Notes under the pieces: model-generated | Databases searched by the model: none | Told to the model about the DNA's origin: nothing | What the model saw: only the letters and a program-made list of their open reading frames with translations | In this document: piece after piece, positions 1 through 35,565 of the stretch | How the letters are laid out: each line of letters opens with the position of its first letter | How positions within the stretch are numbered: the stretch's first letter is position 1 | From: Naegleria gruberi | Lineage: Eukaryota | Direction: 5' to 3' (one strand) | Assembly (NCBI GenBank): GCA_000004985.1 | Contig: GG738889.1 | DNA: 64,000 nucleotides | Position numbers and translations under genes: made by a program

Positions 1-1426
1 TAAATTATTATTATTATTATTAATAGAATTAATAATACCAGTTAATTGAGAAGGATTAAATTTTTTTTTAATATATTGTTTAAAAATAGGATTTAATTTA
101 ATAATATTATTATTATCATTTAAATCATTTGAATTAAATTGATATTTTTTAATAGTATTATTAGGATTTAAAATAATATTACCAATATTATTTAATATAC
201 CTATACCATTTATAGCATGTATTTGTCTAAGTAAAGTAGATAATGATATTTTTTTAATAATCCAATTAGATCCAATTGTTAAATCTAATAATAAATCTCC
301 TACTCTTTTTTTAGAACTCATTTTTAATATAATTAAATCTCTCATTTTAATTCCTAATTTTTTACTTGATTGAATTTCATTTTCTAATACTTGACAAAAT
401 ATTTCATATTTTCTTCTCATTTCTCCATTTATAGATTCTAATAATCCTATTGCAGGTGGTGATAATGTTGTTATATTATTATTATTATTTAAATTATTAT
501 TATTTAAATTATTATTTAAATTATTATTATTATTATAATTAATATTAAAAAATAAAATATTTGAATCACCTCTCATTTCAATATTACGTAAAGTAACATT
601 AATAAATTCTAAAGAATTATTATCATTAATATTATTTTGTATTTGTGCAATACATTCTTGTAAAATATGTGGTGTAAAAATATCTGAATATTCTGAAAAT
701 GATTTAAATATATTTGGTATTTCTCTTAATCCATTTTTTAATACTTCTTCTTCTTTTTTAGGTAATACTGCTATTTTTAATTTAGTTTTTTCATCATATT
801 TTATATCTGTATTTAATAATATATTATAAAATTTATTATCTTTAATTTTACAAAATCTTTGTAATTCTTCTTTTGTATTAATTAAATTATTTACATTATT
901 TAATTTATCTTCTTGTAATGCTATTTTAAGTAAATCACTTGATTCAGATATAAAATTAATTAAACTTGTTTTACCTGAACTTAATTTAATTGTTGGTTCA
1001 ACTATTTGTGATTGAATTTGAATATTATTTTTATTTTTATTATTATTAATATTATTAGTATTATTAATAATATTATTTGATTGAATAGATGATTGATTAA
1101 TAGATCTAGATGGTCTTTTTAAACTACTGGTAGTTGCTGTAATTGGTTGTTGAATAGTATTATTAGTATTATTATTATTAGATGAAGATATATTATTATT
1201 ATTCATTGAAGATTTAATAGATGAAATTCTAGAAGATGGTTTTTTTAATTGACTTGTTGTAATTGGTGTTTGTTCAATTAATTTCTTTTTTGGTATTGTA
1301 AAATTAATATTATCAGATATATTATTATTATCATTATTATTAGTATTATTAGAAATTGATGATTTAAATGATGATGAAATTGAATTATTATGAACATGTT
1401 CATTACTATTATTAGATTTATCAGTT
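1..1426 (-). CDS. N/S-rich hypothetical protein, internal fragment truncated by window edge and by assembly gap
   Basis: Minus-strand frame (codons ending at plus positions 3k) is open over the whole interval, about 475 codons (...QSQIVEPTIKLSSGKTSLINFI...IGLLESINGEMRRKYEIFCQVLENEIQ...FNPSQLTGIINSINNNNNNL, running off position 1). Coding-like composition; no family recognised. Absent from ORF track because no in-frame start before the gap. Confidence 0.45.
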
Positions 1427-2554
1427 NNNNNNNNNNNNNNNNNNNNNNNNNNNNNNNNNNNNNNNNNNNNNNNNNNNNNNNNNNNNNNNNNNNNNNNNNN
1501 NNNNNNNNNNNNNNNNNNNNNNNNNNNNNNNNNNNNNNNNNNNNNNNNNNNNNNNNNNNNNNNNNNNNNNNNNNNNNNNNNNNNNNNNNNNNNNNNNNNN
1601 NNNNNNNNNNNNNNNNNNNNNNNNNNNNNNNNNNNNNNNNNNNNNNNNNNNNNNNNNNNNNNNNNNNNNNNNNNNNNNNNNNNNNNNNNNNNNNNNNNNN
1701 NNNNNNNNNNNNNNNNNNNNNNNNNNNNNNNNNNNNNNNNNNNNNNNNNNNNNNNNNNNNNNNNNNNNNNNNNNNNNNNNNNNNNNNNNNNNNNNNNNNN
1801 NNNNNNNNNNNNNNNNNNNNNNNNNNNNNNNNNNNNNNNNNNNNNNNNNNNNNNNNNNNNNNNNNNNNNNNNNNNNNNNNNNNNNNNNNNNNNNNNNNNN
1901 NNNNNNNNNNNNNNNNNNNNNNNNNNNNNNNNNNNNNNNNNNNNNNNNNNNNNNNNNNNNNNNNNNNNNNNNNNNNNNNNNNNNNNNNNNNNNNNNNNNN
2001 NNNNNNNNNNNNNNNNNNNNNNNNNNNNNNNNNNNNNNNNNNNNNNNNNNNNNNNNNNNNNNNNNNNNNNNNNNNNNNNNNNNNNNNNNNNNNNNNNNNN
2101 NNNNNNNNNNNNNNNNNNNNNNNNNNNNNNNNNNNNNNNNNNNNNNNNNNNNNNNNNNNNNNNNNNNNNNNNNNNNNNNNNNNNNNNNNNNNNNNNNNNN
2201 NNNNNNNNNNNNNNNNNNNNNNNNNNNNNNNNNNNNNNNNNNNNNNNNNNNNNNNNNNNNNNNNNNNNNNNNNNNNNNNNNNNNNNNNNNNNNNNNNNNN
2301 NNNNNNNNNNNNNNNNNNNNNNNNNNNNNNNNNNNNNNNNNNNNNNNNNNNNNNNNNNNNNNNNNNNNNNNNNNNNNNNNNNNNNNNNNNNNNNNNNNNN
2401 NNNNNNNNNNNNNNNNNNNNNNNNNNNNNNNNNNNNNNNNNNNNNNNNNNNNNNNNNNNNNNNNNNNNNNNNNNNNNNNNNNNNNNNNNNNNNNNNNNNN
2501 NNNNNNNNNNNNNNNNNNNNNNNNNNNNNNNNNNNNNNNNNNNNNNNNNNNNNN
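1427..2554. other. assembly gap (1128 N)
   Basis: Run of N; the two 390/387-aa X-only ORFs in the track are artefacts of it. Confidence 0.99.
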
Positions 2555-2555
2555 T

Positions 2556-3572
2556 ATTATAAATTTACAAAGAAAGAAAATCAAGGGAATTTATAATATT
2601 GGTAAACATACAGCAGAAATTTTACGTGAAGTAATATCAGGAACCAAGAAGGGAGTGATGGTACAAGAAGTGATTGATGATTGTAGATTTATAGGTAAAA
2701 AATTGATGGATGCACAACCAACAATGTTAGTAATTGGAAATGTAACAAGAAGAGTATTATTTATTATTAGAGATGAATTTGGACAATTAATATTAACTAG
2801 AAAGAAATCCACAAATATTGTAACAAGTGGAAATTTATCAAATTTACTTGAAATGAAAAGTAATATTGATTATGATGAACCATTTGAAAGTGGATTAAAA
2901 TTAAGAATAATTGAAGGAGTTAATGAATTAATTGGAGAAATGGAAGGTTTATATAAAGATATTTGTGATTTAGCAACAGAACATATACAATCAAATGAAG
3001 TCATTTTAACAATTGGATTATCACATACTGTTGAATTCTTCCTTTTAGCTGCTGCACAAAAAGGTAAAGAATTTGATGTTATTGTAACTGAAAATGCACC
3101 TTCTTATTCAGGTCATAAAATGGCACTTAAATTAAGTAAGGCTGGTATTAGAACAACTTTAATTTCAGATGCTGCTATTTTTGCAATTATGGATAGAGTT
3201 AATAAGGTTATTGTTGGTACACATGCTGTTATGGCAAATGGTGGTCTTGTTTCTCCAACTGGTACTCATCTTGTTGCTTTAGCTGCAAAAGAAAAATCAA
3301 TTCCTGTTGTTGTTTGTAATGGTTTATACAAATTAACTCCACTCTATCCTTTAGATCAAGATTCTTTCAATGATAGACATTCTCCTTTGGAAATTATCAA
3401 ATTAGAAGATGGTACTCTATTGAGAAATGTTCATGTTGTTAATCCTGCTTTTGATTACGTTCCACCTGAATTGGTCGATTTATTCATTACAAATGTTGGA
3501 AGTCATAGTCCTTCCTATGTTTATGCTCTCTTAGCTCAATATTATGATGTTAGAGATTATGTTTTAGAATAA
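2556..3572 (+). CDS. EIF2B2: translation initiation factor eIF2B beta subunit (5' end lost in gap)
   Basis: Frame is open from the gap edge (IINLQRKKIKGIYNIGKHTAEILREVISGTKKGVMVQEV...) through TAA at 3570-3572. Strong collinear match to eIF2B-beta: VGN.TRRVL.IIR.E, EVI(L)TIG.S.TVE.FL..AA.K.K.F.VIV.E.AP...GH.MA..LSKAGI.TT.I.DAAIFA.M.RVNKVI.GT....ANG.L...TGTH..ALAAK..S.P..VC, and the C-terminal V.VHNPAFDYVPPEL(I/V)(T/D)LFI(S/T)N(I/V)G...PSY(I/V)Y.L pattern. Confidence 0.85.
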   Translation: MINLQRKKIKGIYNIGKHTAEILREVISGTKKGVMVQEVIDDCRFIGKKLMDAQPTMLVIGNVTRRVLFIIRDEFGQLILTRKKSTNIVTSGNLSNLLEMKSNIDYDEPFESGLKLRIIEGVNELIGEMEGLYKDICDLATEHIQSNEVILTIGLSHTVEFFLLAAAQKGKEFDVIVTENAPSYSGHKMALKLSKAGIRTTLISDAAIFAIMDRVNKVIVGTHAVMANGGLVSPTGTHLVALAAKEKSIPVVVCNGLYKLTPLYPLDQDSFNDRHSPLEIIKLEDGTLLRNVHVVNPAFDYVPPELVDLFITNVGSHSPSYVYALLAQYYDVRDYVLE

Positions 3573-3726
3573 ATTCTTAATATTCTATTATTATTAAAAA
3601 AGATAGAACATTTATTTGTTGTTGTTTTTAAAAAAGAAACAATATACTATGACATTACATTATAATATTGGTATTAGTATTAAAAAAACATGTGTGTCTG
3701 TGTGTAAAATTGTGTGTAAATCAGAA

Positions 3727-5556
3727 TTAAATAAGTAAAGTAACAAAATCAGATGAAAAATCAATGATTGGACATGTTTTTTCAAAAGTTAAAGAAGTCA
3801 TAAAAGCATCAGATGCTTCTTCATCATCATTAAAATGTTCAGATAAAACTTTACCCAAATGATACCAAGCCAAATGATTTGTTGGATTGATACGTACAGC
3901 ATTTTGTAAATAATTTCTTGAAAGTGTTGTTTGTTTTTCATGTTTGTAAAAAATAATACCCAATCTTAAATAGGCAATTTCACAATCAGGATCATTAATT
4001 AAAGCAGCTTCATATTCAATAATTGCATCTTTAATTTTACCAGAATCTTCAAATATTCTACCTTCACATGAATGAATTAAAGCATTTGTTTTTTTAAGTA
4101 AATTAATTAATTCTTGTTGTATTTCATCTTTTTGTATTCTACCATTATTTAATAATAAATCAATTATAGTCATATAATCACGTGATGTTTTTTGAATTGG
4201 TTCAATTGATCCAATTAATTGTTGTTGTTGTTGTCTTTTTAGGTTGTGAAGCAGATGAAATTGGTTGAGTATTATTTGGTAAAAGTGTTGAAACTTTTGA
4301 TGATTCAATTTCTTCAATTTCTTCAACTAATTGAATCATTAAATCTTTAGCTTTAGACATGTTAAATGTTGCATCATCAAGTAATTTCTTTCTTCTCAAT
4401 GCTTCACTTATAAATATATAATAATTTATAATATCAATCTTTTTTTGTCTATATTCTACTATGGATATTAATTTTTTATTTTGGATTTTGATTATTATTT
4501 AATAATAAATTATTAGTATTATTAGAAGTAGTATTAGTAGTAGTATTATTTAAATTATTTAAATTAAAATCCAATCTAGTAGTATAATTATCTAAATATT
4601 TAAATAATTCATCTGATAATTTAGAATAAGTTCTAACAGATTTATTAGAATCTAATGATGCTGATGATAATATATTATTATTAATATTAATATTACTATT
4701 AATATTAATATTATCAGATTGTTCAGATGATTGTAAAGAAATATTAAAATTAAAAGATTCTAATAATTCTTCCATACGTGCATATAATAATTTTAATTTT
4801 AAATCATTTGGATATTGTTCTAAAATAATTTTAATAATTTTAAAAGATTGTAAATAATTTTGTTTTTCACTTGATGTAAATAATAATGCTAATAAAATCC
4901 ATGATTGTTTTTCATCTTGATTTAATGAAATTGATTTTTTAATATATAAAAATGATTCTTTTAATTCTCTCATTTCACTATAAATTAATGATAAATGATA
5001 ATTTAATTTATAATCATTTGAATCATATTCATTTACTTTTAATAGAATTTTAATTGATAAATTTAATANATTATTCTTTTCTGTCATGGNNNNNNNNNNN
5101 NNNNNNNNNNNNNNNNNNNNNNNNNNNNNNNNNNNNNNNAAATACTTGACCATTTAATAAATCAATATTATTTATATTCATAATTACATCTAAATCTTTA
5201 TAACTATTTAAAATAACATCTAAATTAGTTAAATTATTATTTAAAATTATATTAAAATATTCTCCTACTATATTTGTATTCTTATTTTCTATTAATTTTA
5301 ATATTTTACTATTTAAATCTTGTAATATTGTTAAATCACTTGTCATTTGATAATATTGTATTTTAGATTCTACATGTAAACAATCACTTAAATTTTTACA
5401 TCCTAATTCTTGTGCTTTTTTAGAACATTGTTCTAATTCGGATGATTGTTTATAATCATTTTGTGATCTTGCCAATGTTAATTCACGTATTATAACTTGT
5501 GATTGTAATTGTACAAGCTTTTTAGACATTTTTTTTTTATTGTTATTGTTGTTCAT
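3727..5556 (-). CDS. TTC7: TTC7-like tetratricopeptide-repeat protein (PI4K-complex scaffold family); contains a 60-N gap and two frame disruptions
   Basis: N-terminus MNNNNNKKKMSKKLVQLQSQVIIRELTLARSQ... (ATG 5556). Middle block ILLALLFTSSEKQNYLQSFKIIKIILEQYPNDLKLKLLYARME matches the TTC7 helical core. C-terminal block ALINDPDCEIAYLRLGIIFYK...NHLAWYHLGKVLSEHF...PIIDFS matches the TTC7 C-terminal TPRs and tail (..AW.GLGEVL......EA.DCF.TALELE...P..PFS). In-frame TAA at 4476 and a +1 shift near 4200-4330 (in a QQQQ/ACAACA run) suggest unresolved short introns or indel errors. The missing middle (NLQKDLHLQ...LLSKY) is only present in the duplicate copy at 7446-7750. Confidence 0.6.
5090..5149. 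other. assembly gap (60 N) inside TTC7-like gene
   Basis: Run of N. Confidence 0.99.
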
Positions 5557-7385
5557 CCGTTGGGCGCTTCTATTATATGATGATGACACCAACAACAATA
5601 ACAATAAAATTTTATTAGCCTATGGACCAAGATTCACAGGAGAAGGCTTTGGATGACGAAAAGAGAAATAGAATGCGTGAAGAACAAATGTTTGCAAACA
5701 GTGTGGAAAGGCCAGGCTTCAAAATAAGAATATTGGAGCAAAAGTAATCTTCATCATGCTAACAAAGAAAATGATTAAATCACATCTGACGTCATTTTCA
5801 TCATCAAATGCTCCTATTAATTAATTGTTAATAGCAATAATATCTTAATATTCAAAAGTTTTATTTAGATCCATTATTATCATCATCTCCATCATTAAAT
5901 AATAATTCAAAAAAATAATAATTTAAATAATTGTGGATTAATAATTGAAAATATATGTTCATCTAATTTATTAATTTAACCTATAAACAAGTCAATTAAT
6001 TGGTTGACTACTCTTAAAAGTAAACTATTCCTATATCTTTTACAATTCTCTTCAGCAATAGATTATTCTTGTTGGCTTGTTTAAAAATCTCATAAAAATC
6101 ATGACAAGAAATTGCAAAATTGAAAAGAGTTTTCACATTTCCAATAAACTCTAAAATACAATAAATCATGTCATGACTATTTACAAGTGGACTTAAATTG
6201 ATGAATGGACTTTCAGTATGATCAATAATTGAATCAATAGAATACAACATTTTCCTAAAGGCATCCAATAAATTATCATCCCATTCAATATTACAAGTTT
6301 CTCTCTTAATAATTTCAATGAGATGTTGTTTTCTATCCTCCTCTTTATCATCCTCAGAGGAATATTTAGTCTTTTTAGAAGGTGGATATGATAACTCATT
6401 ATCATTCTCATTCTCATTATTATCATTCTCATCATTACTCAAATAATCCTTGTAATGTTCTCCCAATACATTAACTAAAACTCTATCATTCACATAACAA
6501 TCAAATTCACACAATTCCAAATATCTTGTCAAGTAAATTGGATGAACATTATTCATTAGTGAATTAATTTGTTCAAAGGGTCTAACATTCTGATACTCTG
6601 CAAAACATGCATCATTAAATTGTATTGTTCGTTTTTCTCCTGAAAACATTAAAATTTTAGTTTTATCACTCAGAGTAAATAAAACTAAATGATCATCAAA
6701 TTCGGAAATGGGAAATCCCCTCATAGCATAAAAAGGTTGTTTATATGAAACGTGAGGAAGAGAGCAAACTAATTCTTCCAAATTTAAATTGTTAATAGAG
6801 GAAATTTCAATATTAGAAAGAGCTTTTTCTAGCATGGAAAAATTGATAATGTAAAAATTGTGCATGATCACCATACGTGTTCTGGCCATTTTTTTTTTTA
6901 ATTCGTAATGTTAATTCCTTTCTTTACTGGAACTAAATAGTATTCTATTTGAATGTTGAAATGGTTTATAATATTACAATGCAAATTGGTATAAACCTAT
7001 TGATTCATTTCTTAATATCAATGACCTTATGTTATTTCATTAGATGAAACTGTCAATGTCCTTAATTCTTAATAAGTAAACTATCAAAAGGAAAGATTTA
7101 CCTTTCCACTCTTACAATGAAACTGTAGAAATACTGTTTCTCCATTGGGTTGATTGGCATAATGAGGATGATTAAGTTTCGATTGAAATATGACAAGATT
7201 TTTTAATATACCCTATTACAATGGATTTAATGAAGAAATCATTAAACGGTAACAAATAAGATTTTAAAAAGATATTCCAACAAGATATTTAGAATAGATA
7301 TTTATCATTCAATAATAATTTATAAATCATCTCATTTTCTCCACTAATATTATTGAATATTATAGTGTTTTAAGAGTNGGTGTAT
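5150..7385. repeat. segmental duplication, copy 1 (TTC7 5' part + upstream region + hypothetical gene + about 500 bp downstream)
   Basis: Near-identical to 7742-10018 with scattered substitutions and several indels (e.g. 45-bp indel at 5650-5700 vs 8250-8270); bounded by N gaps on both sides. Confidence 0.8.
6014..6889 (-). CDS. hypothetical protein (duplicate copy 1), 291 aa
   Basis: Uninterrupted ORF MARTRMVIMHNFYIINFSMLEKALSNIE...; the paralogous copy at 8605-9495 conserves the frame through indels (DKTK vs DDDKTK, PPSKK vs PPPPSKK), arguing that the frame is real. No family recognised. Confidence 0.55.
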   Translation of the reverse strand: MARTRMVIMHNFYIINFSMLEKALSNIEISSINNLNLEELVCSLPHVSYKQPFYAMRGFPISEFDDHLVLFTLSDKTKILMFSGEKRTIQFNDACFAEYQNVRPFEQINSLMNNVHPIYLTRYLELCEFDCYVNDRVLVNVLGEHYKDYLSNDENDNNENENDNELSYPPSKKTKYSSEDDKEEDRKQHLIEIIKRETCNIEWDDNLLDAFRKMLYSIDSIIDHTESPFINLSPLVNSHDMIYCILEFIGNVKTLFNFAISCHDFYEIFKQANKNNLLLKRIVKDIGIVYF

Positions 7386-7445
7386 GGAGTAATAANNNNN
7401 NNNNNNNNNNNNNNNNNNNNNNNNNNNNNNNNNNNNNNNNNNNNN
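7386..7445. other. assembly gap (60 N)
   Basis: Run of N. Confidence 0.99.
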
Positions 7446-8158
7446 TAATATTTAGATAATAATTGTAAAATATTAATTTTAATAATAGGTTGTAATAAAT
7501 TTTTTAATTGAATTAATTTTAAAATTAAATTAATTCCTTGATCAATATTATTTTTTAATAAAATTTCAATTTGATTAAAAATTTCTAATTGAATTTTATA
7601 ATTATTAAAACTATCAATTTTATCAATAATATTTGAATATTTAATTAAATGATCAATTAAAATATTACTTTTTTTAATAGATAAACATTTAAAATAAATG
7701 AATATATATGGTAATTGTAAATGTAAATCTTTTTGTAAATTAAATACTTGACCATTTAATAAATCAATATTATTTATATTCATAATTACATCTAAATCTT
7801 TATAACTATTTAAAATAACATCTAAATTAGTTAAATTATTATTTAAAATTATATTAAAATATTCTCCTACTATATTTGTATTCTTATTTTCTATTAATTT
7901 TAATATTTTACTATTTAAATCTTGTAATATTGTTAAATCACTTGTCATTTGATAATATTGTATTTTAGATTCTACATGTAAACAATCACTTAAATTTTTA
8001 CATCCTAATTCTTGTGCTTTTTTAGAACATTGTTCTAATTCGGATGATTGTTTATAATCATTTTGTGATCTTGCCAATGTTAATTCACGTATTATAACTT
8101 GTGATTGTAATTGAACAAGCTTTTTAGACATTTTTTTTTTATTGTTATTGTTGTTCAT
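7446..8158 (-). CDS. duplicated 5' portion of TTC7-like gene (copy 2; truncated at gap; either a gene fragment/pseudogene or the true continuation mis-placed by assembly)
   Basis: Same N-terminus as 5160-5556 (MNNNNNKKKMSKKLVQ...) and extends further (…NGQVFNLQKDLHLQLPYIFIYFKCLSIKKSNILIDHL...LLSKY) up to the gap. Confidence 0.4.
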
Positions 8159-10018
8159 CCGTTGGGCGCTTCTATTATATGATGATGGTGATGACACCAA
8201 CAACAATAACAATAAAATTTTATTAGCCTATGGACCAAGATTCACAGGAGAAGGCTTTGGATGACGAAAGAAGAGGAAAGGCCAGGCTTCAAGATGAGCA
8301 AAAGTAATCTTCATCATGAGCTGCTAACAAAAGAAAATATTAAATCACATCTGACGTCATTTTCATCAATGCTCCTATTAATTAATTAATTGTTAATAGC
8401 AATAATATTGTTGAAGATATTCTTTTACATGAAAATTAATATTCAAAAGTTTTATTTAGATCCATTATTATCATCATCTCCATCATTAAATAATAATTCA
8501 AAAAAATAATAATTTAAATAATTGTGGATTAATAATTGAAAATATATGTTCATCTAATTTATTAATTTAACATATAAACAAGTCAATTAATTGGTTGACT
8601 ACTCTTAAAAGTAAACTATACCTATATCTTTTACAATTCTCTTCAGCAATAGATTATTCTTGTTGGCTTGTTTAAAAATCTCATAAAAATCATGACAAGA
8701 AATTGCAAAATTGAAAAGAGTTTTCACATTTCCAATAAACTCTAAAATACAATAAATCATGTCATGACTATTTACAAGTGGACTTAAATTGATGAATGGA
8801 CTTTCAGTATGATCAATAATTGAATCAATAGAATACAACATTTTCCTAAAGGCATCCAATAAATTATCATCCCATTCAATATTACAAGTTTCTCTCTTAA
8901 TAATTTCAATGAGATGTTGTTTTCTATCCTCCTCTTCATCATCCTCAGAGGAATATTTAGTCTTTTTAGAAGGTGGTGGTGGATATGATAACTCATTATC
9001 ATTCTCATTTTCATTATTACTATCATTCTCATCATTACTCAAATAATCCTTGTAATGTTCTCCCAATACATTAACTAAAACTCTATCATTCACATAACAA
9101 TCAAATTCACACAATTCCAAATATCTTGTCAAGTAAATTGGATGAACATTATTCATTAGTGAATTAATTTGTTCAAAGGGTCTAACATTCTGATACTCTG
9201 CAAAACATGCATCATTAAATTGTATTGTTCGTTTTTCTCCTGAAAACATTAAAATTTTAGTTTTATCATCATCACTCAGAGTAAATAAAACTAAATGATC
9301 ATCAAAATCGGAAATGGGAAATCCCCTCATAGCATAAAAAGGTTGTTTATATGAAACGTGAGGAAGAGAGCAAACTAATTCTTCCAAATTTAAATTGTTA
9401 ATAGAGGAAATTTCAATATTAGAAAGAGCTTTTTCTAGCATGGAAAAATTGATAATGTAAAAATTGTGCATGATTACCATACGTGTTCTGGCCATTTTTT
9501 TTTAATTCGTAATGTTAATTCCTTTCTTTACTGGAACTGAATAGTATTCTTTTTGAATGTTGAAATGGTTTATAATATTACATTGTGAATTGGTTATAGA
9601 ATGTAATAACCCATTGATTTACATTTCTTAATATCATTGACTATTTATTATTTCATTAGATGAAACTGTCAATGTCCTTAATTCTTAATAAGCAAACTAT
9701 CAAAGGAAAGATTTACCTTTCCACTCTTACAATGAAACTGTAGAAATACTGTTTCTCCATTGGGTTGATTGGCATAATGAGGATGATTAAGTTCGATTGA
9801 AATATGACAAGATTCTTTAATATACCCTATTACAACGAATTTAATGAAGAAATCATTAAACGGTAACAAATAAGATTTTAAAAAGATATTCCAACAAGAT
9901 ATTTAGAATAGATATTTATTATTCAATACTAATTTATAAATCATCTCATTTCCTCCACTAGTATTATTGTATATATTATTGAATATTATTGTGTTTTAAG
10001 AGTGGTGTATGGAGTAAT
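7742..10018. repeat. segmental duplication, copy 2
   Basis: See copy 1. 7360-7385 (left of the gap) matches 9993-10018, so the unit end is defined. Confidence 0.8.
8605..9495 (-). CDS. hypothetical protein (duplicate copy 2), 296 aa
   Basis: Paralogue of 6014-6889; differs by 3 in-frame indels and 2 substitutions. Confidence 0.55.
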   Translation of the reverse strand: MARTRMVIMHNFYIINFSMLEKALSNIEISSINNLNLEELVCSLPHVSYKQPFYAMRGFPISDFDDHLVLFTLSDDDKTKILMFSGEKRTIQFNDACFAEYQNVRPFEQINSLMNNVHPIYLTRYLELCEFDCYVNDRVLVNVLGEHYKDYLSNDENDSNNENENDNELSYPPPPSKKTKYSSEDDEEEDRKQHLIEIIKRETCNIEWDDNLLDAFRKMLYSIDSIIDHTESPFINLSPLVNSHDMIYCILEFIGNVKTLFNFAISCHDFYEIFKQANKNNLLLKRIVKDIGIVYF

Positions 10019-10062
10019 AAAAACCTTATTTCCCATTTCTCCACATTACTCAGCTGAAATGG

Positions 10063-10071
10063 TTTGGCGCC
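10063..10071. promoter_or_regulatory. E2F-consensus half site TTTGGCGCC in 5' region of gene 10105
   Basis: GC-rich 9-mer in AT-rich context; member of the recurring TTTGGCGCCAAA family (see findings). Confidence 0.3.
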
Positions 10072-10104
10072 TTTCTGCTTTCGTGCATTTTTTGTAAAAA
10101 TAAC

Positions 10105-10836
10105 TTGGAGAGATGTTGTTTAAGAGTCAATAAAGACGATCAAAGCCTAAAAAAAAAAGTGACCACTCTCAACAATAGCATCCAGCACAGATACCTTATA
10201 CTATCATCATTGTTAATAATATTGATTGTTGATTTTGTGTTTATATCACTTTGTTTGTGGATGTTTATTCGTTCCTTTAATGAAACAGTTCACTACGGTG
10301 AAATGGTACAATTATTGAATATGAGAACGAAGGCTGTTGTAGAACAACGTGATTATCATTGTCAACATTCAAGTTATAGACAGGGTGGTGATGTATATTG
10401 TTCATCTTTAATAAGATTATTTAATTCCGAACCTTTTAATATACCAGATTCTTATTTTGGTAATTTGAATATTTTAAATCAAACTATATTAAGAAATACT
10501 AATGATTATCAATTATTAGAAAAAATACCAAATAATGGTGAATTTATTCATGTTTATATTCATGTCAATACAACTCCATTAACTTCACCTTTTATTTCAT
10601 TTTCAATTTATGAAAATTTAAAAGAATTACAAAATTTAAATGTTACTTCACCTGCCTTTTTAGGAGGATCTGTTGGTATTCTATGTATTGCAATTGCCAT
10701 AACTTTTTTAATTATTGCTATAATTATTGGATGGAGAATTAAATTAAAACAATTAAGAGATTTTCATTTAATTGATATTTTATTAATTAATTCAAATGGA
10801 ATACAAGTTAAAAAAGATGGTTCAATTAATGTTTAA
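10105..10836 (+). CDS. hypothetical membrane protein (two predicted TM helices); start codon unresolved
   Basis: ORF open from 10021; first ATG in frame only at 10261 (MFIRSF...), yet the upstream in-frame segment encodes a TM helix (YLILSSLLIILIVDFVFISLCLW), so a spliced 5' exon is likely. C-terminal TM GILCIAIAITFLIIAIIIGW. Confidence 0.3.
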   Translation: MERCCLRVNKDDQSLKKKVTTLNNSIQHRYLILSSLLIILIVDFVFISLCLWMFIRSFNETVHYGEMVQLLNMRTKAVVEQRDYHCQHSSYRQGGDVYCSSLIRLFNSEPFNIPDSYFGNLNILNQTILRNTNDYQLLEKIPNNGEFIHVYIHVNTTPLTSPFISFSIYENLKELQNLNVTSPAFLGGSVGILCIAIAITFLIIAIIIGWRIKLKQLRDFHLIDILLINSNGIQVKKDGSINV

Positions 10837-11359
10837 TTTTTATGCCCTATTATGTAGTTTATATTATTTATTATTATTTATTATTTATTTTACTATTTAT
10901 TTACTATTTATTTTTCTATTTTTTATATTTATTATTTATATTTAAATTTCAAATTGATAAAGTAATAATTGCAAGTCAATATTCCAATTTGAAATTAAAA
11001 AACAAACACACATAACATCAAATAAAATATTTTCAAGTTTTACTTCTCACTATCTAGATATCAATATTATGAACATTATCAATTCACAACCAAACTCCAC
11101 TGTGACCATCACAAATGAAGATTACAAAATGGTGGTGAAACGCCACAAAATCTTGAAGGAGTTTTTTCATCCAATCAAATTTTATCACAGATACAATCGC
11201 GTTTCTCTCTGTTTTTAAAAAAATCTCCAACAACAACAACACATCACCACCACAATTATTGTCGTTGCGCTATAAAGTTCATCATCTCATTATCATCATT
11301 GAATTCATCATCACACCAGTCAAAATATTTTCATCACTATCCAATATATTAGAAAAGAG

Positions 11360-13369
11360 ATGAAAATCCATAACAAATTATCATCAAGACCACACTCACT
11401 ATTAATTATTCTACTACTATTATCTATTATAGTAATACTATTATTTAACAATGTCAACAATAATAAGGTAACATGTCAAGTTAATATAAATAAAATTATT
11501 GAAATGACAAATAAATTAACAGAATATATATCAAATGAACAATCATTAAAAGATTTACCATTTAAATCATTTCCAATTCAATTTGCTGAACAAGCAGGTT
11601 TATATAAATCATATATTCATATGAATAATGGTGGATATGATTATGAATCTATTTTATTAAGAAGATATGCTAAAATACCTGATTTGAATATGTTTGTTAC
11701 TAATTTTGTTATTTTAACACAAATTGAATCTAATTATTTAATTACTAATTCTAAATATAGTAATAAAATTACAAATATATTAAATTTAGATAGATTAAAT
11801 TTAGCAATTAAAGCTATTTTAACATATCATGATAATAATTTTAATGAAAGTGTTCCAGTTTATAACTTTTGGCCTCAAAAATTATTACCAAATTCAAAAT
11901 ATTATCAAGCTTATCCAATTAATTTAATTGAACCTTTAAATGAATTTGGTTCAATGGAAAAGTATATTGAAGAATTATTAAAATTTCTAAAATTGGAAAA
12001 TTTATTAGAAAAAGTTGAAGATTTAATTGAAAGTTTTCAATTTCTAGCTCAAGCTTTTCATATTCCAGCTGATTATGATGATACTTCATGTAATTTAGCA
12101 TTAGGTTCAATGTTATTTAAATATTTAAATAATAATCAAGAATTAATTAATTTATGGAAATCTAAAAATGTTGATTATGATTCTTTATTTAAAATTTATG
12201 AAAGATTTGCCTATCATTTAATTGTTAATAATAATCATAATAATAATCATAATAATAATCAACTAGAACATCAAGAAGAACATCAAGAAGAACATCAAAA
12301 AGTGAACAATGAACAACATCAAAATATTATTGATCCAAGATCTTATTTTATTTTTCATAAATTTTTTGAAAATAATTTAAATATTAAATTACCAATGACA
12401 TGGTTAATGGATATTAAACAAGATAGAGATAGATTTCCAGCAGTAGCACAACCATTTAATGTTAATAATGTTGATTTGAGTGTTTTAACTAATTTTATAT
12501 TTGGAGTATCTGCACATACTTTAAATGGAAATGAGTTATTATTAGATTCACATCCAATTATAGAACAAATGTTATTAAATGCAAGTAAAATAATTGAATA
12601 TTCAATTATGAATGAAATTGAATCTAAAAGACCTGATTTATCACTTGTTTATTATCCAAGTGTTTATGATTTTTATTGGTTTATTTCTAGAACTAGTTTC
12701 CTTTTAAAGAATTCTAATACTAAATCAAGAATATTATTAGAAATTTCTAAAATATTTGATAATATTTTAATTAAATATATTACAAATAATTTATTAAATT
12801 TATCTAAAAAGAATGAAAAGAATGAAATTTATTGGGATGATTTTTTAGGAGATTTTAAAGAAAAAGAATTAGGAGAAGATAGATTATTTTCAACATCATT
12901 AGCATTATCAACATTATTAGATACATGGACAAATTTAGAAAATAATAGAAGAGTATGGAATCCATCCATTCCATTACATGTTAAAAATTTAATTGAAAAT
13001 GGAATTTTATATTTACAAGAAAATTTATTTTCATTTTGGTCAATTTATGAAAATGCATTCTTTTCAGGATCAGTGAAAGGATCAAATGATTATCCATTTT
13101 ATTATCCAATGAATTATTGTGAATTTTTAAATGGTACTATTTTAAAACCAATTGATCCTAATATGATTACTGATGATTTAATTGTTGGTATGGAGGGTTT
13201 AATTTCACCTCAACAATATGATTTATATTTAAAACAATTATGGTTTAATGAATCTGTACCTACCAAATTTAATGGTTTTGAAAAGGAAACATTTCCATTT
13301 TGGAGTTCACCTGCTTTGACTTATTCTATTACTCAATTGGTTTTTTCAAAATATTTAAGTTTAAATTAA
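11360..13369 (+). CDS. hypothetical secreted/type-II membrane protein, 669 aa (N-terminal signal anchor)
   Basis: Long uninterrupted ORF MKIHNKLSSRPHSLLIILLLLSIIVILLF..., with an HNNNHNNNQLEHQEEHQEEHQ low-complexity insert; no family recognised from sequence. Confidence 0.55.
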   Translation: MKIHNKLSSRPHSLLIILLLLSIIVILLFNNVNNNKVTCQVNINKIIEMTNKLTEYISNEQSLKDLPFKSFPIQFAEQAGLYKSYIHMNNGGYDYESILLRRYAKIPDLNMFVTNFVILTQIESNYLITNSKYSNKITNILNLDRLNLAIKAILTYHDNNFNESVPVYNFWPQKLLPNSKYYQAYPINLIEPLNEFGSMEKYIEELLKFLKLENLLEKVEDLIESFQFLAQAFHIPADYDDTSCNLALGSMLFKYLNNNQELINLWKSKNVDYDSLFKIYERFAYHLIVNNNHNNNHNNNQLEHQEEHQEEHQKVNNEQHQNIIDPRSYFIFHKFFENNLNIKLPMTWLMDIKQDRDRFPAVAQPFNVNNVDLSVLTNFIFGVSAHTLNGNELLLDSHPIIEQMLLNASKIIEYSIMNEIESKRPDLSLVYYPSVYDFYWFISRTSFLLKNSNTKSRILLEISKIFDNILIKYITNNLLNLSKKNEKNEIYWDDFLGDFKEKELGEDRLFSTSLALSTLLDTWTNLENNRRVWNPSIPLHVKNLIENGILYLQENLFSFWSIYENAFFSGSVKGSNDYPFYYPMNYCEFLNGTILKPIDPNMITDDLIVGMEGLISPQQYDLYLKQLWFNESVPTKFNGFEKETFPFWSSPALTYSITQLVFSKYLSLN

Positions 13370-13440
13370 TGATTAAACTTTGATAATAAATTATTCATTG
13401 GTTTTTTATTGTTGTATGATATTTAATTAATGATAAATTT

Positions 13441-14439
13441 ATGTTGAATAAAAATATATTTAATAAATTTAAAAATGTAATTCTTTTAAAATTTAACTTG
13501 GAAAAAAAAATGAAACAATTTAAACAGTCCATTAATTTATTGAAATTATTGAATAATAATAAAACAACTATTAATAGTTCTTCCACTGCATTCAAATCAA
13601 TTATAATCAATAATAACAATTATGGATTTAATAGAGTAAATAATTATCATCATCATTCCATTCTTCAATTGAACAATAATAATAACAATACGGAACAAAA
13701 GAATACTATTAGTACATCCAATAATAATATTAATATTAATAATAATAATAATAATAGTACTCAACAACAATTAGAAGAACAAAAATTTGTCATTTCCGAA
13801 GATGTTGAAAGTACTCCATCATCATCATTAAATAATAATACTAATACAACCAATAATAATAATACTTTTAATAAGAATCAACAACGTATTAGAATTATTA
13901 ATTCATCATCTAATAATTCCAATTCTTCATCATCATCATCTTATAAATTTACAAAAACACTTAAATATTCAATAATATTTACAATAGCATCTGTTGTAAT
14001 ATATATTATAGTAGAAACTAATAATGATAGAATGAATTATTATGTATCACCATCTAAAGTAATGGATAATCGTCAAGATTTTCCACCTGATCGTAAAATT
14101 AGAATTGGAGGTATTGTTAAAGAGGGAACAATTCAACATGGTGAAAATAATTTTCTTACAATATTTAAAATTACAGATTTGAAATATGATATTGAAATTG
14201 AATATAAAGGTGTTTTACCTGATTTATTTGAAGAAAATAGTACTGCTATTTGTGAAGGTTTTATGCTTGGACATTCTAAATTGAAATGTACTAATATTTT
14301 AGCTAAACATGATCAGAGAAATGGAATGCCACCTGAAATTGCATATGAAGTTGAAAAGAATAGAAGAGAAATGGAAAGAAGAAAATTAAATCAAGAACAA
14401 GAAAGTTCTAAGCATCATCACATTGAAAGTGAAATTTAA
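13441..14439 (+). CDS. ccmE: cytochrome c-type biogenesis protein CcmE (System I haem chaperone), N/S-rich N-terminal extension
   Basis: TM helix IIFTIASVVIYIIV, then YYVSPSKV...PDRKIRIGGIVKEGTIQHG.NNFLTIFKITD..YDIEIEYKGVLPDLFEE..TAICEGFM......C.NILAKHDQRNGMPPEI. This is collinear with E. coli CcmE FYTPGEI..P.VRLGG.V.PGSV.R......V.F.I.D....V.V.Y.GILPDLFREGQGVV..G.L.......A.EVLAKHDENY.PPEV. Alternative start at 13510. Confidence 0.8.
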   Translation: MLNKNIFNKFKNVILLKFNLEKKMKQFKQSINLLKLLNNNKTTINSSSTAFKSIIINNNNYGFNRVNNYHHHSILQLNNNNNNTEQKNTISTSNNNININNNNNNSTQQQLEEQKFVISEDVESTPSSSLNNNTNTTNNNNTFNKNQQRIRIINSSSNNSNSSSSSSYKFTKTLKYSIIFTIASVVIYIIVETNNDRMNYYVSPSKVMDNRQDFPPDRKIRIGGIVKEGTIQHGENNFLTIFKITDLKYDIEIEYKGVLPDLFEENSTAICEGFMLGHSKLKCTNILAKHDQRNGMPPEIAYEVEKNRREMERRKLNQEQESSKHHHIESEI

Positions 14440-32824: not shown

Positions 32825-33980
<1,156 letters not shown>

Positions 33981-34152
33981 TTTTTATTCTTTCAATTTTT
34001 ATTTTCTTCAAAGAATATGATGAATAATTTCATTTTCAATTATTGTTGAATGATGGTTGTTGGAGAGAATCTTTTGACAATGGATGATGCGAATCTTTGC
34101 TTTTTATCATGATTTCAATAAGTTTATTCAATAATTTTATAGAGATGTTGTT

Positions 34153-35256
34153 TCACAGTAGAATCATTCTAGATTTACTGATCACTTCTGTTGGGTGATG
34201 AATTACATGATTACTTGTTGCATTAGTTGATGTGTTACAAATTGTAGTTAGAGTTGTCGTATTATTGTGGCTGGTAATTGAGGTAACCTTATTTTCCATC
34301 AAGAGAGTTTTAAGATTCTTGCCTTGCATTTGAGCAATTTCCTTAGAATTGAAGTTAGAGAATCCCTTTGCAATTATCTTTCTACTGTTACAATCTCGAA
34401 TAGTAACAATGTCATCCCTTTCAAACTCGCCAATTAACTTGGTTATTCCACAAGCAAGAAGATTTTTACATCTTTGTGAAAGTGCAGAGGTGGCTCCTTG
34501 ATCAACCAGAATACTACCTTTTTCTTCACCTTTTCTTAATACCTCCAGAATGGAACAATTCATTGGATAATGCGATTCGAGAGCTCTCACATGATGAACC
34601 AGAGTGTCCACATAATGGTCCGATACAGGTAGGTATTCCTGTAACCTGTAGAGGTAATCTCTGTTTGGACCTGAATGGCCAAAAGCTCTCGCAATATGTT
34701 TTGATGAACAACAGATATTCTCTGGACCAATGAATGGACACTTCTTTGGCTGTTCTCTATTTACAAACGGATCAAAATAATAAACTATGGCATTCTGACA
34801 AACTGCAATCGTATCAGAAACGTAAACCTTAACACTGGTTTTCTGATAACCAGCAACCAATTCTCTATAATCTAAATCTTTCATCACTCGCTCAGCATTC
34901 TCAAATGATACCTTATAACAAGTTCCCCAAACTATTTCCTCGTCCATATCTTCACTTTTGGAATTGATATCATGTTGTAAAGATGATTTGTGAGCAAAAT
35001 TTTGATATTGACAAGAACAAATAGGCTTATTAGATTTTTCTTTCAGTACTTTCTGATAATCATTTTCTCTGATGATTGTAAGCGTTCTTCCTTCTTGATT
35101 TGGTTGTCCTCTATGGAATAAATCCTCCAACCAGAATCTTCTTCTGAATCCTTTGATAAAACCACTAAAAGAACTTTCATATTCAAATCCCGGCCTCCAA
35201 ATAACAGACCCATAGGCAAAGATAAACAACGGAGCATCAATATCACCCATACACAT
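34153..35256 (-). CDS. ChaC-like gamma-glutamylcyclotransferase fused to a C-terminal PUA domain
   Basis: Single ORF, 367 aa. N-terminal part: LFIFAYGSVIWRPGFEY...GFIKGFRRRFW...HRG...GR.LT......W.GT.YKV...........L.YRE...GY....V.VY (ChaC/GGCT signature YGSL.W.P.F.Y......GF.RG..RRFW). C-terminal part: SILVDQGATSALSQRCKNLLACGITKLIGEFERDDIVTIRDCNSRKIIAKGFSNFNSKEIAQMQGKN, which matches the PUA domain of glutamate-5-kinase ProB (..VDEGA..A.......LLP.GI..V.G.F.RGE.V.I.......IA.G...Y.S.......G). Confidence 0.65.
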   Translation of the reverse strand: MCMGDIDAPLFIFAYGSVIWRPGFEYESSFSGFIKGFRRRFWLEDLFHRGQPNQEGRTLTIIRENDYQKVLKEKSNKPICSCQYQNFAHKSSLQHDINSKSEDMDEEIVWGTCYKVSFENAERVMKDLDYRELVAGYQKTSVKVYVSDTIAVCQNAIVYYFDPFVNREQPKKCPFIGPENICCSSKHIARAFGHSGPNRDYLYRLQEYLPVSDHYVDTLVHHVRALESHYPMNCSILEVLRKGEEKGSILVDQGATSALSQRCKNLLACGITKLIGEFERDDIVTIRDCNSRKIIAKGFSNFNSKEIAQMQGKNLKTLLMENKVTSITSHNNTTTLTTICNTSTNATSNHVIHHPTEVISKSRMILL

Positions 35257-35565
35257 GATGTTGCACTATTAATATATTGCTGGAGAGAAGTTGATCCTTT
35301 TTTTCGGTTTGAATTGTCTACTTATGATACTCATCGAAATGCATTTCCAAGCTTGCTTCAATTTCCATGGAAAAAGTCTAGACTAGGAACGGAAATATGG
35401 ATTTTCCAACTTGCTGTTTTTTTGAAGTAAAGAGATGTTTTCATAATGGAAGATTCACTCCTCATAACATTAAATACATTCTCCTTAAGTCCTCCTAAGG
35501 CAATTTTATTCTTTTAAATACCAAGTCAACATGTTTGTAATTTTATTAATTCTCAATTATTTAAA

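Follow-up and report, generated by a model that had tools for sequence, protein, structure and literature searches.

A ChaC/gamma-glutamylcyclotransferase domain fused to a glutamate-5-kinase-type PUA module in Naegleria gruberi and other eukaryotes

Why would a PUA domain of the kind that closes glutamate 5-kinase (G5K, ProB) sit at the end of an enzyme with an unrelated catalytic fold? The question is raised by a gene of Naegleria gruberi at positions 34153-35256 of a 64,000-nucleotide stretch of contig GG738889.1 (assembly GCA_000004985.1), the whole of which we call the window, in which a ChaC-type gamma-glutamylcyclotransferase (GGCT) is continued by such a module. What the PUA domain does in glutamate 5-kinase itself has been under debate for about 20 years, with RNA binding, allostery, and filament formation as the proposals. 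On balance, and with modest confidence, we favor the following answer: the locus is an intact single-exon nuclear gene for a glutathione-specific ChaC enzyme, to which a G5K-derived PUA, captured once, would lend a module for assembly, for the binding of partners, or for regulation. This answer builds on what is observed, namely the domain architecture, the conservation of that architecture, the assignment of the PUA to the G5K type, and the intact catalytic motifs; what it would add to them is the identity of the substrate, a role for the PUA, and the notion of a single origin.

The coding region is one uninterrupted open reading frame (ORF) of 367 codons, exactly where an earlier note on this DNA, made from the letters alone, had placed it, and all the peptide strings quoted in that note are found in the translation. 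The note was silent on the strand, which is the minus strand; the plus-strand frame over the same interval is riddled with stops. In-frame TAA and TAG codons (35266-35271) stand three codons 5' of the ATG. The deposited N. gruberi protein (the NCBI/UniRef entry "ChacC and PUA domain-containing protein [Naegleria gruberi]") matches the translation with 100% identity and full-length coverage, so the single-exon reading coincides with the public gene model, and precomputed Pfam tables assign both domains to this protein and its relatives. The architecture is already catalogued by its two domains in public databases and is not a new kind of system. The note's remark that ChaC-PUA was not known as a described architecture is therefore superseded as far as the databases go, where it is already named, but it stands for the literature: full-text searches combining ChaC/PUA, Naegleria, and Dictyostelium found no paper discussing a ChaC-PUA protein.

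The Pfam/HMMER run that the note had proposed recovers both domains far above the curated cut-offs and far beyond chance, with the limits shifted from those foreseen: ChaC occupies residues 11-225 rather than 10-250, and the PUA core residues 247-314 rather than 280-360. The underlying claim, a fusion of a ChaC/GGCT catalytic domain with a ProB-type PUA, is backed by profile, PDB-sequence, and fold comparisons. For the catalytic half, the Pfam family PF04752 matches with E=9.9e-38 and 130.4 bits (cut-off 21), over profile positions 2-175 of 176; a search of PDB sequences returns human ChaC2 (1.9e-16) and yeast Gcg1 (8.9e-14); and Foldseek, run on an AlphaFold2 (AF2) model and so with a predicted structure, gives as best matches ChaC2 (6ky1; E 1.7e-17, target TM-score 0.86) and yeast Gcg1 (5hwi). 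The domain thus resembles the characterized enzymes of this family (human ChaC2 and ChaC1 and yeast Gcg1; PF04752, EC 4.3.2.7) in its end-to-end profile match and its predicted GGCT fold, as well as in the YGS(L/V)IW, HRG, GR, and SGPNxDYL motifs and the catalytic Glu. A YGSL-type motif and a catalytic Glu define the GGCT-fold enzymes, and Glu83 of ChaC2 is the conserved counterpart of the catalytic Glu in GGCT, GGACT, and ChaC1 (PMC7022552). In the PDB alignment, the column of Glu132 holds Gln in the E83Q chain of 6ky1, so that Glu132 lies opposite ChaC2 Glu83. The YGS motif, His48-Arg49-Gly50, Gly56-Arg57, Arg131-Glu132, and Gly193 do not vary across 19 fusion proteins, and the SGPN stretch (195-198) comes close to this (Gly196 and Asn198). 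With these motifs intact, the ChaC half is most likely catalytically competent; from its family membership and its catalytic residues, the enzyme most likely cleaves cytosolic glutathione to 5-oxoproline and Cys-Gly. Where it departs from its characterized relatives, which are single-domain proteins of about 180-240 aa, is in the added PUA of about 125 aa and in a Met-Cys start.

The PUA half points with equal consistency to a single subtype. Pfam PUA (PF01472) matches its core with E=8.6e-14 and 51.7 bits (cut-off 24.8), and the best NCBIfam match is TIGR01027 (proB; E=1.5e-15, positions 266-347 of 363), against 3.3e-9 for archaeal PUA proteins. A profile built from 14 diverse fused PUA modules and searched against PDB sequences reaches the G5Ks of E. 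coli and Burkholderia at about 1e-21, covering G5K residues 274-365 of 367, whereas the next PUAs (PH1915, APE0525, and Cbf5) follow at 4e-6 (4.3e-6) to 1e-2 and over the core only. Foldseek aligns the AF2 model to the G5K structure 2j5t over about 123 columns (E ~5e-8), and in a homologue search with the module alone every named match is a 'glutamate 5-kinase'. By sequence, then, the module is specifically of the glutamate-5-kinase/ProB type, and because of the gap between 1e-21 and 4e-6 its derivation from a G5K-type gene is the simplest reading. The PUAs of bacterial and fungal G5Ks (TIGR01027; 2j5t, 8zpj, 4q1t) are by far the closest subtype, down to the post-core helix and the terminal strand. 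With the RNA-binding PUAs of Cbf5/TruB, archaeosine TGT, Nip7, NSun6, and archaeal stand-alone proteins such as APE0525, the module has in common the PUA core fold and the PF01472 match, but these are far more distant and align over a core of about 65 residues, and the present protein has no catalytic domain for RNA modification. Since the kinase domain is absent (Pfam gives no match to the amino-acid-kinase family PF00696 in the ChaC-PUA protein), the protein is not a G5K and only bears a G5K accessory domain; its whole-protein TIGR01027 score of 57.3 bits likewise lies below the equivalog cut-off of 186.

The module is also longer than the roughly 85 aa first ascribed to it. It comprises about 125 aa and runs to the last residue, because a conserved strand (EVISKSRMILL) that matches the G5K C-terminus follows beyond a disordered insert. 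This strand is conserved in all fusions, aligns with G5K residues 357-365, and is modeled as two short strands at residues 357-359 and 364-366. The insert, which interrupts the module in Naegleria but not the G5K PUA, lies between the post-core helix and the terminal strand, in the place taken in G5K by the regulatory GYEYG loop. The insert differs in length and sequence from one Naegleria species to another, is absent from two other fusions (P0007 and P0008), and has a predicted local distance difference test score (pLDDT) below 50 at residues 334-352 of the model. Around it the PUA core is preserved, with the equivalents of G5K Gly283, Ala284, Gly299, Phe307, Gly326, and Gly340 kept in the fused modules.

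The architecture is not confined to N. gruberi. Colinear orthologs occur in N. lovaniensis (57% identity), N. fowleri (55%), and Willaertia magna (48%). The search for ChaC+PUA in other taxa that the note had called for was made as an exhaustive HMMER profile search of 1.84 billion 50%-identity representatives, and in it the fusions rank at the top of the list: the PUA module is present in 24 of the best 150 matches, to which P0124, with a degenerate PUA-like tail, adds one more, giving about 25 clusters at 50% identity. Named bearers include Tieghemostelium lacteum, Dictyostelium purpureum, Synstelium polycarpum, and Pelagomonas calceolata, the last represented by a 90% cluster of 95 members from marine samples. 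Further fusions come from the MMETSP and EukProt transcriptomes and from metagenomic contigs, on which they adjoin eukaryotic genes (PP2C-LRR, an Arf called in two pieces, and Mpv17). The architecture is rare, yet spread over at least Heterolobosea, Amoebozoa, and Stramenopiles. Because a standalone ChaC of 241 aa (P0023, KAL9650736.1) coexists with the fusion in Willaertia magna, the fused form is an additional paralogue there, and the notion that the fused gene is the sole ChaC of these organisms is refuted. We picture the fused genes as a specialized ChaC paralogue family that would extend through Heterolobosea, Dictyostelia, pelagophytes, and several other protists. In a Cochliopodium minus transcript (P0017, 324 aa), a single predicted protein carries a tandem duplication of the N-terminal ~100 residues of its ChaC, probably an artefact of transcriptome assembly.

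Did this family arise once? When 145 ChaC domains are arranged in a neighbor-joining (NJ) tree, one split sets apart all 18 fusions whose domains are complete and, with them, only two further sequences, viz., a truncated Clastostelium transcript and P0124, a 314-aa protein from a JGI metagenome whose degenerate PUA-like tail (...VVVLKKDLILT) escapes the PUA profile. A second shared character is the N-terminus: a Met-Cys start, 9-12 residues before YGS, is found in 15 of the 17 N-terminally complete fusions as opposed to 3 of 122 unfused ChaC representatives, and it therefore supports a single fusion event. It occurs in variants such as MCMG, MCQD, and MCED; no conservation extends to the residues around it, and the model shows residues 1-4 as disordered. 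An MCED start is also seen in a ChaC of Diphylleia rotans (P0105, 246 aa) that has no PUA; this protein and P0124 may show the family in decay or before the fusion. From the NJ grouping and the shared start, a single origin of the fusion is most likely and is the more economical reading.

What the captured module might do is best approached from its source. In E. coli G5K, the PUA is dispensable for catalysis and needed for filaments, bundles, and proline-induced higher oligomers; it also tunes proline inhibition, the regulatory loop being stabilized via Tyr352 and Tyr354 (bioRxiv 10.1101/2024.09.19.614007; PMC6099280). It binds no substrate and makes protein-protein contacts, and within filaments the PUA of one chain touches the kinase domain of another (bioRxiv 10.1101/2024.09.19.614007). 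Its function has nevertheless been called "not well understood" (PMC11573504). The activity of ChaC enzymes, for its part, has been linked to their oligomeric state, which was proposed as a modulator (PMC7022552). Hence, by analogy with G5K, we propose that the PUA in the fusions most likely forms a non-catalytic protein-protein interface, joined to the enzyme by a flexible linker, that controls its assembly state, its binding of partners, or its activity. Its contacts would have to be made with a newly evolved surface, because the residues with which the G5K PUA contacts the kinase are replaced. The same facts bear on the earlier suggestion of domain shuffling between glutathione-degrading and proline-biosynthetic enzymes: as a reading of the profile gap it remains the simplest, but the appeal to the gamma-glutamyl substrates common to both enzymes is a weak mechanistic argument, because the PUA of G5K contacts protein rather than substrate and its contact residues are not kept in the fusions.

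Several observations weigh against the proposal of a once-captured protein-interaction module. With the G5K contact residues lost, the analogy with G5K cannot be literal: in a comparison of 28 fused modules with 15 G5Ks, His360 of the H-R-[D/N] tail is present in 15/15 G5Ks and 2/28 fusions, Tyr352 and Tyr354 are retained in none of the 28, and the kinase-contact residue Glu345 is not conserved. The geometry between the domains is not confidently predicted in either of two AF2 models. That of N. gruberi has a mean pLDDT of 84.7 (mostly >90 in the ChaC domain) and a predicted template-modeling score (pTM) of 0.74, and that of the compact ortholog P0008 a pTM of 0.66 with the linker at pLDDT <50; because the domain arrangement is uncertain, the models say nothing firm about an effect of the PUA at the active site, though such confident domains about an uncertain linker would fit a tethered rather than a rigidly packed module. 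As for the single capture, exact monophyly of the fused ChaC domains was recovered in 0 of 200 bootstraps, and an NJ tree of 28 fused and 15 G5K modules did not separate the two sets, the split appearing in 9 of 500 bootstraps, so one capture and several cannot be told apart from the PUA alone; mean PUA identity is 39% among the fused modules and 34% between fused and G5K. Finally, the basic character of the fused PUAs fits nucleic-acid binding as well as a new protein partner.

This last point belongs to the main rival, which we judge unlikely although it has the strongest case among the alternatives: that the PUA truly binds RNA, tethering the enzyme to RNA or a ribonucleoprotein as a matter of moonlighting or localization, or else allowing RNA to regulate the enzyme. 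PUA domains elsewhere bind RNA, the distant profile and fold matches of the module include Cbf5/TruB, NSun6-type, and Nip7-like PUAs, and one JGI pipeline labels a member of the family 'predicted RNA-binding protein (TIGR00451 family)'; the subtype to which the module belongs, however, is the sole PUA class without an established RNA function. The fused PUAs are indeed more basic than those of G5K, with a mean net charge of +2.2 as against -0.3 (p=0.002, in a comparison whose G5K set held three Pelagomonas-type fusion fragments), and Lys or Arg has been gained at the Gln344-equivalent position in 22/28 fusions, but the gap of about 2.5 units is small and could mirror the composition of the lineages. 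E. coli ProB itself shows specific RNA binding by SELEX and electrophoretic mobility shift assay, yet so weakly (Kd well above 10 uM) that its authors are cautious (PMC10380284). No RNA feature is tied to the ChaC-PUA gene.

A bolder and distinctly doubtful variant would make the fusions an ancient regulated class in which the PUA acts autonomously of any kinase, by RNA binding or by filament or condensate assembly, and the Met-Cys start serves as a redox or oxygen sensor, so as to couple glutathione breakdown to the redox or translational state. The conserved N-terminal Cys may hint at regulation by redox state or oxygen; it could possibly act as an N-terminal-Cys degron or be a site of redox chemistry, glutathionylation, or acylation. 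Were this variant true, it would supply a second, independent context for the long-unresolved function of the ProB PUA.

Improbable, too, is a retargeting of the ChaC half to gamma-Glu-Cys, a glutathione conjugate, a trypanothione-like thiol, or a protein- or partner-bound gamma-glutamyl group, with the PUA providing recognition. A canonical standalone ChaC alongside the fusion in Willaertia would leave room for a new function, and the domain differs from ChaC2 in part: ChaC2 Glu74 is not conserved, an Arg standing opposite it in N. gruberi, and the 'loop2' gate carries a lineage-specific insertion of about 43 aa in Naegleria. The insertion bears a conserved Cys-x-Cys motif (CSCQxQN/CGCQRQN), falls between two ChaC2-aligned stretches, and has a pLDDT <50 at residues 86-96. 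Every Naegleria sequence has it, but Willaertia, the dictyostelids, and all other fusions lack it, so that it does not characterize the fusions as a group; moreover, the ChaC profile match is strong and end-to-end, with all other conserved ChaC positions kept.

Still less probable is a docking of the PUA onto the organism's own glutamate 5-kinase or P5CS, which would physically tie the breakdown of glutathione (5-oxoproline to glutamate) to the making of proline. The PUA-kinase contact between chains of the E. coli G5K filament offers a model for it, and both pathways involve gamma-glutamyl and 5-oxoproline chemistry, but the Gln344, Glu345, Tyr352, Tyr354, and H-R-D tail of G5K are not conserved in the fusions. 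An artefact, whether two genes joined by an assembly, sequencing, or annotation error or a pseudogene, has nothing specific in its favor beyond the gene-merging errors seen nearby in two N. fowleri models, and it is effectively refuted by the colinear, uninterrupted frame in four independently sequenced heterolobosean genomes, by the same domain order in dictyostelids, the Pelagomonas cluster, transcriptomes, metagenomes, and thus many unrelated datasets, and by the core residues kept in both domains.

Table 1. Features of the ChaC-PUA gene, with coordinates in the window
Feature	Coordinates	Strand	Basis
Complete single-exon coding sequence of the N. gruberi ChaC-PUA protein, 367 aa plus TGA stop (34153-34155)	34153..35256	-	ORF list, NCBI identity
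Start codon and Cys2 (Met-Cys N-terminus)	35251..35256	-	Conserved across the fusion family
ChaC/gamma-glutamylcyclotransferase catalytic domain, residues 11-225	34582..35226	-	Pfam PF04752, PDB hits, AF2 model
YGS substrate-binding motif, Tyr15-Gly16-Ser17, followed by Val-Ile-Trp	35206..35214	-	Sequence; aligned to YGSLIW of ChaC2
Naegleria-specific insertion at the ChaC2 'loop2' gate, residues 65-107, ~43 aa	34936..35064	-	Alignment, pLDDT
Glu132 (codon GAA), predicted catalytic general acid/base	34861..34863	-	Alignment with human ChaC2 Glu83
Interdomain linker, residues 226-243, with short helix 236-242	34528..34581	-	AF2 secondary structure, pLDDT dip
Glutamate-5-kinase-type PUA module, residues 244-367 (Pfam core 247-314 = 34315-34518)	34156..34527	-	Pfam, NCBIfam, PDB profile, Foldseek
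Disordered low-complexity insertion in the PUA module, residues ~323-355, Thr/Asn/Ser/His-rich	34192..34290	-	Alignment, pLDDT
Terminal strand 'TEVISKSRMILL', residues 356-367, corresponding to the last G5K strand ('VAVHRDDMI')	34156..34191	-	Conservation, alignment

The neighbors of the ChaC-PUA gene are ordinary eukaryotic genes. Upstream, at a distance of about 310 bp, comes a divergently oriented TCP-1/cpn60 family gene, with a Myb-domain gene next; downstream, 170 bp away and on the same strand as ChaC-PUA, is a one-intron gene for a PRMT1-type arginine methyltransferase. In N. fowleri, two gene models, KAF0974487.1 (666 aa) and CAG4716980.1 (706 aa), join ChaC-PUA to this downstream PRMT1; there (L007 2230-2360), a perfect GTAAGT donor overlaps the stop codon TAA, and an AG acceptor brings the reading back into frame with the PRMT1 leader. 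A scan of all combinations near the N. gruberi stop (33980-34155, minus strand) found no in-frame, stop-free GT..AG junction, so the merged model is not conserved there. In N. lovaniensis, ChaC-PUA and PRMT1 are annotated as two genes, and Willaertia has no PRMT neighbor. The merged N. fowleri models probably reflect either an error of annotation or a read-through splice peculiar to that species.

Elsewhere in the window, positions 1-14000 stand apart in composition, with a GC content of 12-27% as against 30-38% in the remainder, and contain long ORFs. Pfam matches in this segment identify an eIF2B-family gene (2655-3572, plus strand) and a CcmE-domain gene (13441-14439, plus strand), and seven other ORFs (225-669 aa) have no Pfam match. 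An identical 16-mer recurs at 5897 and 8488, next to ORFs that resemble each other (6014-6889 and 8605-9495), which points to a possible segmental duplication of about 2.6 kb.

The interest of the ChaC-PUA family lies foremost in its PUA. Here, a G5K-type PUA together with its C-terminal extension is found on an unrelated catalytic fold and has been kept in at least three eukaryotic supergroups; that a module so transplanted was retained therefore suggests that it has a portable function of its own. As a small and easily assayed enzyme, ChaC-PUA would also offer a simpler test bed for the function of the G5K-type PUA than the kinase. For the organisms themselves, the family may represent a specialized paralogue for glutathione catabolism in Naegleria, the pathogen N. 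fowleri among them, in relatives of Dictyostelium, and in an abundant marine alga, all of them organisms in which glutathione turnover matters for stress and development.

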